Source: a virus (lineage: Duplodnaviria > Heunggongvirae > Uroviricota > Caudoviricetes). From it: a stretch of 4,609 nucleotides of DNA. Under the pieces are notes generated by a model that saw only the letters and a list, made by a program, of their open reading frames with translations, was not told the origin of the DNA and did not search any database. Where the stretch lies: the IMG/VR virus record IMGVR_UViG_2703718809_000009. The stretch is one strand, 5' to 3'. The position numbers and the translations under genes are program-made. Position 1 is the first letter of the stretch; each line of letters starts with the position of its first letter. Positions 901 to 4,609 of the stretch are shown here, one piece after another.

Positions 901-1129
901 GGCTCACCACCTCCATATCAGCCATGATAATTTTGCTGGCCTCATTCAGTGCCATATCAGCACTAAGTTGCATTACAGCCAGTGAATGAGGAACGAAAGC
1001 CCCGGCATATTCTGTTTCACTGGTAGCGTGCTTATGCGCCCTGTCCGCGATAACAGAAATATCAATCAGTGCATCAATCAGTGTTTTGATTGCTTCGGCG
1101 GCTGCGTCCGGACGGGTGTTATTGCACAT
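893..1129 (-). CDS. Hypothetical small protein (78 aa)
   Basis: ATG at 1129..1127 preceded by AGGGGG. Overlaps the stop of the Icd-like gene (1119..1121) by 11 nt. No family recognised. Confidence 0.55.
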   Translation of the reverse strand: MCNNTRPDAAAEAIKTLIDALIDISVIADRAHKHATSETEYAGAFVPHSLAVMQLSADMALNEASKIIMADMEVVSHE

Positions 1130-1487
1130 GGTGCACCCCCTGACGAATACGGGCGGCGAATATCATCACGCAGCCAGTTGGGGATTGTTGGCGGGCTTCC
1201 TGTTCGCTGGCGGCCTCGATGTGTATTACGCGTGGTTGTGCGGTGCTCAGGGCGATAAAACGCCAGATGAAATTGTTTTCGCATTTCTGAATAAACAGCG
1301 TGTTTTCTTCACGCCCTTTCCAGAAAGCCGCAGTATAGCCCATCTCCTTAACCATCTTGCGGGCATCAACCAGCGTGTCAGCGGCAACATGTACCGTAGT
1401 TGCTCCATCTGCCATGCGGTCGTGGTGTAGTGCCACAAAGGTGTATATAAATTTAGGGTGAGTTTGGGTATGCTGTGTTCCAGCCAT
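1119..1487 (-). CDS. Icd-like (host cell division inhibitor family) phage protein, 122 aa; first gene of the leftward operon
   Basis: ATG at 1487..1485 with SD GAGGT (reverse complement of 1495-1499) at ideal spacing. Translation MAGTQHTQTHPKFIYTFVALHHDR... resembles the Icd-like small proteins of P4-type elements as I recall them. The ORF-track entry 1119..2036 is an implausible upstream extension that runs through the operator repeats and antisense to the RHH gene. Confidence 0.55.
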   Translation of the reverse strand: MAGTQHTQTHPKFIYTFVALHHDRMADGATTVHVAADTLVDARKMVKEMGYTAAFWKGREENTLFIQKCENNFIWRFIALSTAQPRVIHIEAASEQEARQQSPTGCVMIFAARIRQGVHHVQ

Positions 1488-1518
1488 AATCGTTACCTCG
1501 TTTAACGGTTTGGTTAGA

Positions 1519-1560
1519 AGCCCGGTTAGTGTTCGCGCACTGCCGGGTTTCGTCGTTTTT
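1519..1560 (+). terminator. Terminator-like GC-rich hairpin plus T-tract on the + strand, lying inside the leader of the minus-strand operon
   Basis: cccggttagtg (1521-1531) pairs with cactgccggg (1538-1547): about 10 bp with one bulge, loop ttcgcg, followed by tttcgtcgttttt (1548-1560). There is no + strand gene upstream to terminate, so its role is uncertain. Confidence 0.35.
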
Positions 1561-1573
1561 ATGAATCGATCAT

Positions 1574-1676
1574 TGTGAGATACATAGCGACCATAATGTG
1601 AGATATACATTATATTGTGGTGATATACATTGCAAGTGTTTTTATATCTCACTTTTGTGTATAGTGATATACACAT
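1574..1676. promoter_or_regulatory. Divergent promoter/operator region with an array of GTGA(G)ATATACAT-like repeats
   Basis: Direct copies at 1575-1586 (gtgagatacata), 1598-1610 (gtgagatatacat), 1620-1630 (gtgatatacat) and 1664-1676 (gtgatatacacat); inverted half-site tatatctcac at 1643-1652. Start-to-start spacing 23, 22 and 44 bp. A perfect TATAAT on the minus strand (1614..1609) overlaps the second repeat, and a palindromic TTGCAA sits at 1630-1635. Confidence 0.5.
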
Positions 1677-1695
1677 AACAAATTGGTGATTAACT

Positions 1696-1998
1696 ATGTC
1701 TGTATACAAAAATGCAAAATCGCAAATGACAACGATCAGGGTTCCCCACGATGTTATGGAGGGCATGGAATCCGTAAAACTGGACGGCGAAAGCAACGCC
1801 GGATTCATAGTAACCGCCATGCGCGGTGAGATCGCCCGCCGCCAGGCAGAAGGAAGCGGAGAAAATCCCCTCGTGTCTTCACTGGATGCCTTAGCTAAGG
1901 TCGAACAAATCGGCATCAAGGCAGCGGAGGAAATCGGGCAACTCGTAGCCGTCGCTCGTGAAGAACTCCAGCGGCGTAAAGCCAAAGAATCTGAATAA
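1696..1998 (+). CDS. Ribbon-helix-helix (CopG/Arc-like) putative transcriptional regulator, 100 aa
   Basis: ATG at 1696 with GGTGA 6 nt upstream. The N-terminal segment TTIRVPHDVMEGMESVKLDGESNAGFIVTAMRGEIARRQ fits a beta-strand / helix / G-x-S-N turn / helix layout, followed by a charged C-terminal tail. Divergent from the Icd-like operon across the repeat array. An alternative start at the ATG at 1726 is possible. Confidence 0.65.
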   Translation: MSVYKNAKSQMTTIRVPHDVMEGMESVKLDGESNAGFIVTAMRGEIARRQAEGSGENPLVSSLDALAKVEQIGIKAAEEIGQLVAVAREELQRRKAKESE

Positions 1999-2007
1999 TT
2001 AGTATCA

Positions 2008-2034
2008 GCGCCGTGATGTGAGTAACTACGGCGC
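2008..2034 (+). other. Weak hairpin downstream of the RHH gene (7-bp stem gcgccgt/acggcgc, 13-nt loop)
   Basis: Inverted repeat 2008-2014 / 2028-2034, 10 nt after the TAA stop at 1996-1998. No clear U-tract follows, so terminator function is uncertain. Confidence 0.2.
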
Positions 2035-2348
2035 ATTGCTATGTAAATACTGGCAATAAACAGAAAAGGTAGTTCTACTCCGAATAATTTTATCTGACAC
2101 TACTCCTGAACTAACATGCGCTTATCTTACAGGATATAAATATAAATCCATAAAATCACGATTAAATAAAGTCGCTCCAAACATAAACCACACCCAACGC
2201 TTAACAAGATAGCAACAAACAGGTAAATAACTTGCAGAAATATTTATCGCAAGGATTATCATTATTAATGACAAATCACTTTACCAAGTCATTCCCCTCT
2301 CTTATCATAAAGAGAAAGTAATAAATAAGTTAAGGGAGTTAGAATGCT

Positions 2349-2885
2349 ATGAATCTAAAAAAAATAGCCACAAACACAAAAAACAAGATAACAGAAACAT
2401 TTAATAAACTTATATTAGAGGCATCTAAAACCCCCACACAAGATGAAATTAAAATACTTGAGAGAAGGAGCAAGAAGTTTAATTACTCCTTTTTCTCATA
2501 CGCAGTCACAGGAGCTATAATAGTTTTTTGCTCTCAACCATTAATTAAATACGCAAACCCAATACTTATTTTATTGAGTGGTCTGTTACTGTCTATCATC
2601 ATTATCATTCTCAGAATGATTTATATTTCACAAGCGAATGCATCATGGACAACCAAAAAACGCTCACATGTACTAGTTCATTTTCTTTCTGCATGTTTCA
2701 TAGCATCAACATTGACGTTGCTATATCAGGCTTACGATAATAACATCACACACAAATTGTACTGTAAAAATATACAACAACTTATTGAAAAAAGGATAGA
2801 AACAGAAAAAAACATCAGCATATTCAGTGGGATGCAATGCACCCCGGTATATGATTACTCTTTATTTGGATTTAATCTCTTATAA
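2349..2885 (+). CDS. Predicted small integral membrane protein (178 aa, about 3 TM segments) in AT-rich cargo; function unknown
   Basis: ATG at 2349 with SD AAGGGAG (2331-2337). Hydrophobic segments FFSYAVTGAIIVFCSQPLI, ILILLSGLLLSIIIIILRMIYI and HVLVHFLSACFIASTLTLLY are flanked by charged soluble N- and C-terminal regions. Codon usage is strongly A/T-biased and the local GC is far below the flanks (about 27% in a 60-nt sample I counted). No family recognised. Confidence 0.75.
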   Translation: MNLKKIATNTKNKITETFNKLILEASKTPTQDEIKILERRSKKFNYSFFSYAVTGAIIVFCSQPLIKYANPILILLSGLLLSIIIIILRMIYISQANASWTTKKRSHVLVHFLSACFIASTLTLLYQAYDNNITHKLYCKNIQQLIEKRIETEKNISIFSGMQCTPVYDYSLFGFNLL

Positions 2886-2893
2886 AGAATGTT

Positions 2894-2947
2894 ATTACTG
2901 ATTTGAGTACAAATTCTCAAATCAGTAATTCATAATATTTTATTCTG
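2894..2947. terminator. Probable bidirectional intrinsic terminator between the convergent cargo gene and alpA
   Basis: Perfect 14-bp inverted repeat attactgatttgag (2894-2907) / ctcaaatcagtaat (2916-2929) with 8-nt loop tacaaatt, followed on + by tcataatattttattctg and on - by a moderately U-rich run. The stem is AT-rich (4 GC pairs of 14). Confidence 0.5.
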
Positions 2948-2954
2948 AGATAAT

Positions 2955-3182
2955 TTAAACTACCCACTCACCTCGAATCCATGCCTGCACTTCTGAAAGA
3001 CGATATGCAACAGCAGTGGAACCAATCTTGATCCGCTTAGGAAATTTTCCTTCCTTCTCCAGCTTCCAGCGTGTGCTGTTCGCAAGAGTGGTTAGCTCCC
3101 GACATTCTTTCTCACGGATCATTCGGTCAATGTTAGGAATGTACTCCAGACCCTTTTTATCAACAATTGCCATTTTTTTCAT
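2955..3182 (-). CDS. alpA: AlpA-family phage regulatory protein (excisionase-like HTH DNA-binding protein), 75 aa
   Basis: ATG at 3182..3180, 1 nt after the int stop (TAA 3186..3184). Translation ...RELTTLANSTRWKLEKEGKFPKRIKIGSTAVAYRLSEVQAWI matches the characteristic AlpA/Vis-type helix-turn-helix pattern. The ORF-track start at 3191 is a TTG in the sequence, not ATG. Confidence 0.85.
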   Translation of the reverse strand: MKKMAIVDKKGLEYIPNIDRMIREKECRELTTLANSTRWKLEKEGKFPKRIKIGSTAVAYRLSEVQAWIRGEWVV

Positions 3183-3183
3183 G

Positions 3184-4419
3184 TTAACCAACCTTTTGTT
3201 TGAGGATTGTCACTTTTGAATCAGCACCTGCGATGCTATTGAGATATGTAGTCCAGAGTTCCAGAGCATCCAGTTTTTTAGCCATAAACTTACTCCGGTT
3301 GTAAACACCTGCCACGCCAGGTAGCGCATGGCCTAACAGTTGTTCTACTACATAAAATTCAACACCGAGATCACTTAGATGAGTAGATAGCGTTCTTCTA
3401 AGGTCGTGTAGTGACCATTGTTTTTCATGGCCCAAACGTTTACCGATTTTCCCCCCAATCTTGCTTACGCTTTCTCTAATTCGCAGACTTCCCAGCACAT
3501 AACCAGTATGTTTTGTCTCTTCGTGAACATCCGTTACCCACTGTCGTAGAATTTCAGGTACTGGTCTGACGATTTCAACACCAGTTTTTGAGTGATCTTT
3601 TGGTACAGTCCAAACCCAACTTTCGAGATCCCATTCGCTCCATTCTGATAATCGGGCTTCACTCATTCGACATCCAAATACTGTACAAAGCACAAACATT
3701 TTTCGCGTGTATTCAGACATTAGTTTTAAATCAGGCTCGACAAAAATTGCCTTCCAGAGCTGGCCGAGTTCGGCTTCATCCAGAACCCGATCCCGCTTAC
3801 CTGCAATCTGCCCCACATCACTCATGCGCAAATCCTTTAAAGCATCACACGTCGCGTACTGGCGTACCCGACAAAAACGAAGAGCTAATTTAGTGTCAGA
3901 AAAAACATACGCCGCCATAACTGGTGCATTACGTTTAATTCGGTCAAAACAGTCCAGCCATTCATATAGGTGAGTGTCATTTACGGGCAAATGACCGATA
4001 TAGGGAAAGATATGCTTTCGAAATCTGCCAAGCGTTACAGCATGAGTTTTACGACGCACCTTACAGTAATTTTCATACCAGTAATTTAGTGCATCCTCCA
4101 CTGTAACCGGCTTTAAGCGTTCTTCAGCCTGAATCTTAATCTGGATACGCGGATCACGTTTGTCAGCCAACCAACCACGGCACTCGTCGCGCTTTTCCCT
4201 TGCCTGTTTGAGTGACATATCAGGATATTTACCCAACGTTAGCCAGACCGGAGCAGCCCGGCCACCTGCTAACCTGTAGAAGAAAACAAAGCTCACAGCC
4301 CCTTTAGTACTCACACGAATAGAAAGCCCCTTTCCATCAGCAATGGTGATCTGCTTTTCTCTGGGTTTCCCCAGATATCCTTTAAGCGCTTTGTCGCTCA
4401 GTTTGTTCTCGCCAGCCAT
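3184..4419 (-). CDS. int: P4-type tyrosine integrase (site-specific recombinase, phage integrase family), 411 aa
   Basis: Start at ATG 4419..4417 (MAGENKLSDKALKGYLGKPREKQITIADGKGLSIRV...) preceded by GGGG; the ORF-track start at 4470 is a GTG extension. The N-terminus has the P4-int arm-binding domain pattern (...GKYPDMSLKQAREKRDE...). The C-terminus carries catalytic-domain motifs HDLRRT, LGH and the tyrosine in GVYNRS. Confidence 0.9.
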   Translation of the reverse strand: MAGENKLSDKALKGYLGKPREKQITIADGKGLSIRVSTKGAVSFVFFYRLAGGRAAPVWLTLGKYPDMSLKQAREKRDECRGWLADKRDPRIQIKIQAEERLKPVTVEDALNYWYENYCKVRRKTHAVTLGRFRKHIFPYIGHLPVNDTHLYEWLDCFDRIKRNAPVMAAYVFSDTKLALRFCRVRQYATCDALKDLRMSDVGQIAGKRDRVLDEAELGQLWKAIFVEPDLKLMSEYTRKMFVLCTVFGCRMSEARLSEWSEWDLESWVWTVPKDHSKTGVEIVRPVPEILRQWVTDVHEETKHTGYVLGSLRIRESVSKIGGKIGKRLGHEKQWSLHDLRRTLSTHLSDLGVEFYVVEQLLGHALPGVAGVYNRSKFMAKKLDALELWTTYLNSIAGADSKVTILKQKVG

Positions 4420-4471: not shown

Positions 4472-4609
4472 CAGATAACGAGGAAAATTCAGTGAAAGCA
4501 CCAGATAAACTTATTCTTTATTATCAAAATATTAAGTGTAAAAACCAGCAACTACACGAAAGCCTCAGAAAGCCATGCTAAGTGCTTCGGCTTGACATAT
4601 CCCGGCGTA

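Follow-up and report, generated by a model that had tools for sequence, protein, structure and literature searches.

Within the 4,609-nt stretch of viral DNA analysed here (the window), a block of markedly low GC content separates the int-alpA module of an integrated element from a small regulatory gene, and it encodes a single predicted membrane protein. The locus raises the question of what kind of element hosts this block, whether the block is exchangeable cargo and what its product might do for the element or the cell.

The host element

A sequence-only reading of the window had taken the element to be P4-like. Hallmarks of P4-like satellites are the capsid-hijacking and late-control genes psu, sid and delta, with epsilon in addition, alongside int, a homologue of alpA/vis and the alpha primase. 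Judged from annotation and Pfam labels in L001 and the other relatives, complete relatives of the present element have no psu, sid or delta, carry lambda-E-type capsid and decoration genes and lie inside the major capsid gene of a helper, and the P4-like assignment was abandoned. The annotated content of L001 and the other complete relatives comprises int, alpA, an Icd-like gene, DUF4222, primase, SSB, a major capsid protein, a head decoration protein and an HTH regulator, with the gene order int-alpA-cargo-ylcI-icd-DUF4222-primase-SSB-capsid-decoration and half of a prophage capsid gene on each side. Split capsid pseudogene halves border the element in L001, and the N-terminal capsid fragment abuts int in every examined E. 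coli genome locus with the same integrase. In the IMG/VR loci, S49 peptidase and portal genes come next.

The order of four zones (int/alpA; dynamic; primase/SSB; late captured capsid genes) found in L001, L025 and L026 agrees with the published scheme for helper-embedded PICIs (PMC10111431). That class is defined by its own capsid and decoration genes and by a location inside the helper major capsid gene. By gene content and position, we accordingly classify the element as a helper-embedded PICI (HE-PICI) of the capE group that interrupts the major capsid gene of its lambdoid helper prophage; the capE (Phage_cap_E) site group was set out by Tommasini, Mageeney and Williams in 2023 (PMC10111431).

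A swapped-in accessory cassette downstream of alpA

The low-GC block is a swapped-in accessory cassette that lies directly downstream of alpA and carries one stand-alone gene (Table 1). Sliding-window analysis reproduces the compositional contrast described earlier, with about 31% GC inside and about 46% in the flanks: in 200-nt windows, values within 2040-2962 run from 0.275 to 0.335 (mean 0.312), against a mean of 0.463 outside this interval (sd 0.05, minimum 0.36). An empty-site search against relatives places sharp homology breakpoints at 2040/2041, directly past the hairpin that trails the ylcI-like gene, and at about 2963, within the final alpA codons. The sequence-only reading had described a discrete, foreign-looking cargo block between alpA and an RHH-like (YlcI/YnfO) regulator, and this description stands; of the limits 2040-2950 that it gave, the left edge and essentially the extent are correct, but the true right edge lies at about 2962. 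Other open frames in the region were not retained. The 305-aa ORF at 1119-2036 (-) is a mechanical artefact that overlaps the ylcI-like gene, at a place where relatives annotate only a short Icd-like gene, and a 50-aa hydrophobic ORF at 2122-2274 (-) is not counted as a gene, as it starts with TTG, has no convincing ribosome-binding site and is not annotated in RefSeq relatives; because the region is invariant across three aligned relatives, it provides no evolutionary signal on this ORF.

Table 1. Features of the cassette, its flanks and the attachment junction, in window coordinates
Feature	Position	Strand	Basis
YlcI/YnfO-family small regulator, left flank of the slot, on the cargo-gene strand	1696..1998	+	NCBIfam NF041551, E 8.5e-20; phrog_6522; RefSeq annotation in the relative locus L001
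GC-rich hairpin after the ylcI-like gene, no clear T-run; last conserved feature before the cassette	2008..2036	+	sequence and fold, -17 kcal/mol, z -2.4
Accessory cassette in the dynamic zone of the helper-embedded PICI, AT-rich with 31% GC	2041..2962	.	GC profile, homology breakpoints
Candidate sigma-70 promoter, TTTACC-17-TATCAT, consensus match only	2280..2308	+	promoter scan
Shine-Dalgarno AAGGGAG, 10 nt upstream of the ATG	2332..2338	+	read from sequence
Gene for 178-aa three-pass inner-membrane protein (predicted N-in/C-out), small unnamed family	2349..2885	+	ORF listing, hydropathy, homologue alignment, AlphaFold2 model
Mosaic patch that spans codons 83-119, from the end of TM2 through the cytoplasmic loop into the start of TM3, with nearly all differences between two E. 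coli alleles	2594..2705	+	windowed identity
14-bp inverted repeat without mismatch, probable bidirectional terminator where the 178-aa gene and alpA converge	2894..2929	.	repeat finder, terminator scan
alpA, encoding an AlpA-family regulator/excisionase; borders the slot on the right and converges with the cargo gene	2955..3191	-	Pfam PF05930, E 3e-15
Tyrosine integrase of the capE-targeting HE-PICI clade (mechanical ORF to 4470; 411 aa in RefSeq relatives)	3184..4419	-	Pfam Arm-DNA-bind_3 and Phage_integrase; L001 annotation
Attachment junction: last codons (...TPGYVKPKH) of the N-terminal piece of the helper major capsid gene that the element interrupts	4583..4609	-	translation matches the truncated capsid pseudogene of L001

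That the interval after alpA is variable had been anticipated, and at least 13 alternative cargos are found between alpA and the ylcI/icd region in elements whose integrases are 88-100% identical. The int-alpA pair is present in 179 of 5426 complete E. coli genomes, 68 of which carry the 178-aa cargo. In an integrase-seeded survey of IMG/VR with 65 usable loci, the slot holds this cargo (TM178) in 20, distant members of its family in 2, DUF2971 in 11, TIR proteins in 7, AbiC-like proteins in 7 and several unknowns; DUF3800 and proteins of 449, 363 and 241 aa without known function are further occupants. Some of these occupants, the DUF3800 protein included, have domains of defence type. The TIR cargo, of CAP12/Pycsar type, matches the PADLOC candidate PDC-S35 (E 7e-67), the putAbiC cargo scores above the Pfam threshold (E 3e-16), and the majority of slot cargos match nothing. 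No experimental test of any slot cargo was found in the searched literature.

The 178-residue protein and its family

The cassette contains one genuine ORF, that of the lone 178-aa protein pointed out previously. A run of 178 open codons has a chance probability of about 7e-7 at cassette composition, the longest open frame spans 180 codons against a maximum of 145 across 2000 shuffles, and the coding reality of the ORF is further supported by homologues of the same length at 26-36% identity, with invariant residues. Among the signals around the gene, the inverted repeat that separates it from alpA has RNA fold z-scores of -5.7 (+ strand) and -5.1 (- strand), and the candidate promoter counts as weak evidence because the regional number of such sites is not above shuffle expectation. 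A toxin-antitoxin pair formed with the upstream RHH-like gene was set aside: the ylcI-like gene is widespread without the 178-aa cargo, and a hairpin and 350 nt intervene between the two.

No family had been recognised from the sequence, and searches of Pfam, NCBIfam, PHROGs and PADLOC likewise returned nothing above threshold, the Pfam and PHROGs scans covering the query and all 11 family members and those of NCBIfam and PADLOC the 178-aa protein. Known phage and defence membrane families, including T4 Imm, RexB, holins, colicin immunity and SAVED-fused 2TM proteins among others, gave no above-threshold match in Pfam, PHROGs or PADLOC. Sub-threshold hydrophobic matches comprised Saf_2TM in one member (E 0.038) and a holin/antiholin PHROG in one member (E 0.029); DUF443 was rejected at 19.2 bits against a cut-off of 26.2 bits. 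A word-indexed search of 5.8 billion proteins retrieved E. coli copies alone, all of them at least 88% identical, and the wider family was recovered only by an exhaustive HMMER scan; on these alignments, the protein belongs to a tiny unnamed family whose members are 26-36% identical. Neither PDB nor BFVD yielded a fold match with E < 0.8, and a profile search against PDB sequences gave no match. A tblastn search of 50,697 sequenced phage genomes revealed no homologue, and plasmids gave one weak unannotated Pantoea match of no contextual value. A literature search with the RefSeq accession of the protein also returned no match. In those respects that computation can address, the sequence-only view of the gene as variable cargo thus withstands scrutiny, with no housekeeping or holin match and a gene that is not kept at the slot in all relatives.

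Kyte-Doolittle analysis delineates hydrophobic segments at residues ~46-66 (weak), 70-93 (strong) and 106-128, preceded by 45 N-terminal residues with 11 K/R and 5 D/E. The charged N-terminus and three hydrophobic helices attributed to the protein earlier are therefore present, but the C-terminal tail, with 5 K/R and 5 D/E over the final 50 residues, is balanced in charge and not strongly charged. P71, G78, C139, Q143, F159 and C164 are invariant in the family alignment, and the loop between TM2 and TM3 contains 1-5 K/R, with D/E absent in all family members but one. By the positive-inside rule, this basic loop places both conserved motifs outside the cytoplasm. From that rule and the hydropathy scale, we predict a three-TM inner-membrane protein whose N-terminus and TM2-TM3 loop are cytoplasmic, and whose conserved QPLxKYANP loop and conserved C-terminal helical hairpin are in the periplasm, where invariance of the two cysteines makes a C139-C164 disulfide probable. 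AlphaFold2 modelling with the alignment reached a pLDDT of 85.2; the single-sequence model was poor (62.6).

Other capE HE-PICIs, whose integrases are 86-89% identical, carry homologues of 32-36% identity at this position and in this orientation. Elsewhere, one homologue is an opposite-strand insert between prophage head genes, and that of P. mandelii follows a type XI retron RT-protease at a distance of 49 nt, with both in one low-GC islet. Partnership with type XI retrons as a general rule was rejected: annotation and a six-frame search alike show no homologue at four other RT-protease loci, and the retron link is therefore a single case. Every homologue checked has a GC content below that of its locus. 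When two E. coli alleles are compared over 1694-3292, a 100-nt window in the mosaic patch is 71% identical and the remaining windows are 95-100% identical; of the 30 codons that differ across the full gene, 21 of them non-synonymously and 9 synonymously, 22 are within codons 83-119.

Candidate roles and known systems

Location and architecture suggest that the protein might be an inner-membrane, single-gene phage-exclusion determinant, analogous but not homologous to P22 SieA, a role that we consider quite possible and put forward tentatively. The gene is on the strand of the ylcI-like gene, opposite the inducible int-alpA and icd-primase operons, and its own putative ribosome-binding site and terminator, together with this strand, would make its expression probable while the satellite is quiescent. 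Most likely, the protein would act from the periplasmic side to hinder superinfecting phages from bringing their genomes into the cell, and the resulting superinfection exclusion, of the P22 SieA kind, would protect the cell and thereby the helper-satellite composite. Reasoning from location gives this role little support, as most slot occupants lack known function, and the role is further countered by the published account of the zone as regulatory, by family members in ordinary chromosomal neighbourhoods and by the lack of homologues among the phage genomes searched. A more elaborate form of the proposal appears doubtful: here the family would be a new one of disulfide-stapled, periplasm-facing three-pass proteins that shield the helper-satellite composite by blocking genome entry at the inner membrane, it would constitute a portable module (also found as a prophage insert and beside a retron), and the hypervariability of TM2-loop-TM3 would stem from a coevolutionary arms race against the ejection or tape-measure proteins of phages.

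If phage exclusion is indeed the function, the gene would found a new single-gene family of membrane-level exclusion, and the position right after alpA would be a defence hotspot in helper-embedded PICIs, a class first described in 2023, with a dynamic zone that has until now been read as regulatory. Single-gene exclusion proteins offer handles on the poorly understood passage of phage genomes across the inner membrane, and this one is small and self-contained, occurs in ~1% of complete E. coli genomes and comes with natural alleles and 32-36% identical variants. Should the exclusion prediction fail, the gene would be one more orphan in a recombination-prone slot.

An abortive-infection effector seems unlikely. 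Such a protein would be harmless in the inner membrane until a phage cue, sensed by its 45-residue basic cytoplasmic N-terminus or by a partner, led it to oligomerise, depolarise or permeabilise the membrane and kill the cell before the phage completes, in a manner resembling the small TM effectors of retron Ec48, CBASS and RexB. It is small, helical and multi-pass as these are, the alternatives in the slot include Abi-type modules (putAbiC and the Pycsar-type TIR effector), and the homologue next to the type XI RT-protease echoes pairs of retron and TM effector. However, that association is a single case and the cassette has no sensor partner; moreover, the best-conserved parts are predicted to be periplasmic instead of pore-lining helices, TM2 and TM3 vary most between alleles, and the cytoplasmic N-terminus is short or missing in several family members.

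We regard it as decidedly unlikely that the gene has no part in phage defence and is a lysogenic-conversion or host-adaptation factor (envelope stress, transport, colonisation), or a phenotype-free selfish passenger tolerated in a recombination-prone slot. This would suit those homologues in ordinary chromosomal settings with no adjacent mobile or defence genes (between DUF2756 and a LysR gene; beside csbD), the many slot cargos without known function and the emphasis on regulators in the published zone description (PMC10111431). It fits poorly with three diverged lineages of the family being kept in the same slot of satellite backbones that are 86-100% identical, and residue conservation at 26-36% identity points to purifying selection on function. 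Hitch-hiking with a single clone is also at odds with the data, because the gene travels with int-alpA-ylcI and is linked to three different replication modules.

Small colicin immunity proteins with 3-4 TM helices (colicin E1/Ia/A) neutralise their toxin from the inner membrane, and an orphan immunity protein against an external membrane-targeting toxin (a colicin or pyocin that forms pores, or an effector of a contact-dependent or type VI system) would share the size, multi-pass topology and periplasm-facing conserved surface of the 178-aa protein. The gene is AT-rich and stand-alone, and two Pseudomonas or metagenomic homologues have a pyocin S gene or an Imm42 gene within a few kb. These genes are however not adjacent to the homologues and have partners of their own, no toxin gene adjoins the cargo in any E. 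coli locus, and no family member matches a Pfam colicin, microcin or other immunity family, making orphan immunity very improbable. Least probable of all is a function directed at the helper, whether retiming or blocking its lysis in holin/antiholin fashion or tuning its cycle toward satellite packaging: the satellite sits within the helper and relies on late functions of the latter, the protein, like class I holins, has three TM helices and one family member gave the very weak PHROG match mentioned above, but the gene lies opposite the inducible operons of the satellite and at a distance from any lysis cassette, its predicted N-in/C-out topology and structured periplasmic C-terminus are unlike S105-type holins, no holin family scores above threshold, and homologues also occur outside phage and satellite contexts.

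The known system closest to the proposed exclusion role is P22 SieA, a 164-aa protein with three TM helices whose gene has a promoter of its own and which prevents DNA injection (Leavitt et al. 2024, PMC10883804). In both cases, a single gene of an integrated element encodes ~164-178 aa with three predicted inner-membrane TM helices, is AT-rich relative to its neighbours (GC of 0.34 for SieA, against 0.50 in the neighbouring gene on the opposite strand), runs opposite to the flanking operon and has its own regulatory signals, and both families are divided into types below 30-36% identity. Exclusion has been demonstrated for SieA and is proposed for the 178-aa protein, and the two differ in TM spacing, with a 50-residue loop after SieA TM1. 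The conserved motif FxRYPxEAxxFNK of SieA types A-C, which is predicted to be cytoplasmic, is absent from the 178-aa family alignment, and the motifs and cysteine pair of the latter are predicted to be periplasmic. Homology was rejected, as hhalign of the family alignment against P22 SieA gave a probability of 0.2% (E 0.32).

With retron and CBASS TM effectors the protein shares its small multi-pass membrane architecture and, for one homologue, a position immediately behind a retron RT gene, with both in one low-GC islet. Type IV retrons carry a 2-TM protein (Mestre 2020, PMC7736814) and type XI retrons are described as single-gene RT-protease fusions without a TM partner (PMC7736814). The E. 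coli 178-aa gene differs from the retron effectors in standing alone, with no RT.

As precedent for its location, the sequence-only reading had turned to antiphage cargo in P4 satellites, whose hotspot Rousset et al. in 2022 reportedly placed between psu and int. That precedent is the wrong one because the element is not P4-like: the P4 hotspot belongs to a different satellite family, whereas the present slot extends from alpA to the ylcI/icd divergent control region of a helper-embedded PICI. More relevant are PICI accessory regions, where immune systems are reported at element ends and next to pri (PMC11364771, citing Fillol-Salom 2022). PICI accessory regions and the P4/P2 hotspots follow the same principle as the slot, that of a conserved satellite backbone around an exchanged position in near-identical elements, often with anti-phage content.

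In the HE-PICI description (PMC10111431), the capE group matches the present element in having int and alpA co-oriented with, and inserted in, a lambda-E-type capsid gene of a lambdoid prophage, and in having the dynamic zone followed by the primase/SSB replication zone and then by its own capsid and decoration genes. The sections of it consulted make no mention of the 178-aa family, and the zone that follows alpA is portrayed there as regulatory and not as a defence zone, with Bro-network proteins and immunity RNAs predominating. In contrast to the zone so portrayed, the slot described here combines a YlcI-type regulator with one or two swappable cargos, several of which have defence-type domains.

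A conserved membrane-protein gene in an AT-rich block

The low-GC block that the sequence-only reading had placed at 2040-2950 is indeed sharp: in a sliding profile of 200-nt windows, GC falls to 0.275-0.335 (mean 0.312) at 2040-2962, against a mean of 0.463 (sd 0.05, minimum 0.36) in the rest of the window. ORF listing and hydropathy likewise agree with the lone 178-aa ORF described there; the analysis gives it three hydrophobic segments (~46-66, 70-93 and 106-128), a basic N-terminus (11 K/R and 5 D/E within 45 residues) and a charge-balanced stretch in the C-terminal 50 residues. The ATG lies 10 nt downstream of a Shine-Dalgarno-type AAGGGAG, and the open frame of 180 codons compares with a longest of 145 across 2000 shuffles, the probability of 178 stop-free codons at the block's base composition being about 7e-7. 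This is a real, conserved membrane-protein gene. A 50-aa hydrophobic ORF in the cassette leader falls in a region invariant across three aligned relatives; it has no clear ribosome-binding site and is unannotated in relatives, and was rejected as probably not a gene on those grounds.

Above threshold, the protein has no match in Pfam, NCBIfam, PHROGs or PADLOC. Among 5.8 billion proteins, a word-indexed search returned E. coli copies only, at identities of at least 88%; scanning 1.84 billion representatives exhaustively with HMMER added a handful of relatives of 148-175 aa and 26-36% identity. The family alignment features invariant P71, G78, C139, Q143, F159 and C164, with two consensus motifs, QPLxKYANP in the stretch from TM1 to TM2 and HDxYCxxLQ...EKNSxIFNNMxCR following TM3. 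As the TM2-TM3 loop carries 1-5 K/R, with acidic residues absent in all members but one, the positive-inside rule assigns this loop and the N-terminus to the cytoplasm, and the cysteine pair and both motifs to the periplasm. The topology would be N-in/C-out, with a periplasmic hairpin that a disulfide may staple. AlphaFold2, provided with the family alignment, returned a confident all-helical model (pLDDT 85.2) in which the long helix that begins with TM3 extends as far as residue 147, followed by a short helix at 152-161. Nothing in PDB or BFVD matches the model significantly, a family profile search found none among PDB sequences, and searches of all members against Pfam and PHROGs gave scattered sub-threshold hydrophobic matches only.

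Coordinates of the features discussed, in the window and in compared loci
Feature	Locus	Position	Strand	Remarks
178-aa gene	window	2349-2885	+	sole long ORF of the AT-rich block
Perfect 14-bp hairpin	window	2894-2929		between convergent 178-aa ORF and alpA; fold z -5.7
Weak promoter-like site	window	2280-2308		site count in region not above shuffle expectation
50-aa hydrophobic ORF	window	2122-2274	-	TTG start; in the 310-nt leader, antisense to the 178-aa gene
SymR-like RNA	window	1482-1554	+	two strong hairpins, then T-run ~1554-1559; fold of 1482-1565 z -5.7
Icd-like gene	window	~1305-1502	-	RBS and start codon opposite the SymR-like RNA
Copies of GTGAGATATACA / GATATACAT	window	1590-1680		direct and inverted; between divergent icd-like and ylcI-like genes
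End of interrupted N-terminal capsid fragment	window	4583-4609	-	last 27 nt; lambda-E-type, ...TPGYVKPKH
Capsid-gene halves	E. coli strain 104 (L001)	4446-5234 and 16543-16788
GmrSD_N/NsnA-like and RiboL-PSP HEPN proteins	E. coli strain 104 (L001)	5391-7107		far end of satellite
234-aa membrane protein and 114-aa lipoprotein-like ORF	another capE element (L106)	7967-9057		deeper in dynamic zone
Retron RT-protease and P0017 genes	Pseudomonas mandelii (L010)	6303-8447		low-GC islet, 0.37-0.40 vs 0.5-0.6

A helper-embedded satellite and its variable slot after alpA

The window matches E. coli chromosomes, and its complete relative in strain 104 is an element of ~11.3 kb with the order int, alpA, 178-aa gene, ylcI/ynfO-like gene and icd-like gene, followed by small ORFs, DUF4222, primase and SSB, then a lambda-E-type major capsid gene, a head-decoration gene, an HTH regulator and a terminal GmrSD_N/HEPN pair. 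[quoted passage not shown] The P4-like assignment of the sequence-only reading must be abandoned, as no psu, sid or delta is annotated in complete relatives, while capsid-gene insertion and gene order fit a helper-embedded PICI (HE-PICI) of the capE site group. In the passages of Tommasini, Mageeney and Williams (PMC10111431) cited here, HE-PICIs are divided into integration, dynamic ('Bro'), replication and late zones, the dynamic one being treated as regulatory; it is there that the cassette lies. A second site of defence-type cargo is formed by the pair at the far end of the strain 104 satellite, which resembles PADLOC NsnA / PD-T4-2. In L106, neither the 234-aa nor the 114-aa protein has a Pfam match.

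The same reading's proposal of a variable cargo hotspot stands. With an 'empty-site' query joining the ylcI and alpA flanks, homology in relatives ends at 2040/2041 and restarts at ~2963, inside the last codons of alpA. Of 5426 complete E. coli genomes, 179 carry the int-alpA pair (identity at least 95% in 176 of the 179) and 68 the cassette. In near-identical int-alpA relatives its place is taken by DUF2971 together with a SWIM zinc-finger gene, by a TIR protein of CAP12/Pycsar type (PADLOC candidate PDC-S35, E 7e-67), by putAbiC (PF16872, E 3e-16) or by an unknown protein of 265, 273 or 467 aa. Seeding an IMG/VR survey with the integrase yielded 65 usable loci (integrases 88-100% identical), in which the slot, in counts not dereplicated, holds the 178-aa gene in 20, distant family members in 2, DUF2971 in 11, TIR in 7 and AbiC-like genes in 7, the remainder including DUF3800, a 234-aa membrane protein and unknowns of 363, 449 and 241 aa; the 363-aa protein has no Pfam match, though it is HNH-like by eye. 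The cassette thus sits in a variable slot whose alternative occupants include defence-type genes.

Cargo orientation is regular, with TIR, DUF2971 and unknowns of 198, 265, 273 and 467 aa on the int-alpA strand, and the 178-aa gene, its distant homologues, putAbiC, SWIM and unknowns of 241 and 449 aa on the ylcI strand (L002-L007, L027-L030 and L059-L126), suggesting two differently regulated cargo positions. Same-strand cargo begins ~60 nt after a small ylcI-type gene in the divergent HE-PICI L018 and 33 nt after it in L007, short gaps that suggest co-transcription with this regulator; in the window the two genes are 350 nt apart, with a GC-rich hairpin lacking a T-run between them. The 178-aa gene is read in the same direction as the presumed maintenance regulator and against the int-alpA and icd-primase operons, which suggests that it is expressed during quiescence. 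The SymR-like RNA, a sub-threshold Rfam match to SymR antitoxin RNA (35.3 bits vs a gathering score of 61, E 4.5e-4), is 80% conserved in L018 and may be the satellite's antisense immunity RNA. The GTGAGATATACA / GATATACAT copies look like candidate operator sites for the small regulator.

Distribution and microevolution of the family

The distant homologue P0009 (36% identical) occupies the same slot and orientation in another capE HE-PICI (L018/L052), and so does a third lineage (L053), which shares 64% identity with P0009 and 32% with the window's 178-aa protein; the integrases of both elements are 86-89% identical to the window's. Elsewhere, P0020 is encoded among the head genes of a prophage, on the strand opposite to them and between a Mu-F-like one and the next, a layout resembling a classic moron, and P0017 of P. 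mandelii lies 49 nt 3' of an RT-trypsin fusion matching the PADLOC type XI retron model (E 1e-174), in an islet adjoining Fic and DUF4238 genes. A general partnership with type XI retrons was rejected because no homologue accompanies the RT-protease at four other loci; for this type, no TM partner is listed in the retron classification paper (PMC7736814). Other members adjoin a truncated integrase and umuDC or have an ordinary chromosomal setting. Each checked homologue is lower in GC than its locus, and none occurs among 50,697 sequenced phage genomes.

At least three different replication modules (primase/DUF4222; L031-L051, IMG/VR) are joined to the close E. coli copies, with primase identities of 100%, 93-97% or 47-48%, whereas int, alpA and ylcI stay near 100% and the int-alpA-cargo-ylcI block varies little along its length, showing modular recombination between dynamic and replication zones. 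Two E. coli alleles, 88% identical in protein, differ by 21 non-synonymous and 9 synonymous codons, 22 of the 30 within codons 83-119 (TM2 end, cytoplasmic loop and TM3 start), where a 100-nt window is 71% identical vs 95-100% in the others compared (1694-3292). As many of the differing codons involve two or three nucleotide changes, this patch looks imported.

Possible roles and known systems

We infer an anti-phage role for the 178-aa protein, which would possibly, as our tentative first choice, act as a superinfection exclusion factor at the inner membrane. Favouring this are the predicted periplasmic position of the conserved surface, a gene that stands alone without a sensor, and the family's occurrence also as a prophage insert. 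An abortive-infection membrane effector, the other function the sequence-only reading had thought plausible, appears unlikely, and a protein with no defence role slightly more so. A role as orphan immunity protein, countering a membrane-targeting toxin, is improbable, and one as modulator of helper lysis or life cycle is, if anything, more improbable still.

Superinfection exclusion is also favoured by a layout that mirrors P22 sieA (Leavitt et al. 2024, PMC10883804), an opposite-strand gene with its own promoter and a GC of 0.34 vs 0.50 in the neighbouring gene, whose 164-aa product has three TM helices and blocks DNA injection; homology to SieA was rejected (hhalign probability 0.2%). The report that the PICI EcCIMP1 strengthens superinfection immunity via an unidentified determinant (PMC11773190) makes such a phenotype plausible for this element class. 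The kind of locus is already known, since PICIs are described (PMC11364771) as having immune systems beside pri and at either end, 5' or 3'. Element class and hotspot principle are known, whereas the family of the 178-aa protein is unnamed and uncharacterised, and its gene offers a well-defined, cheap candidate for experiment.
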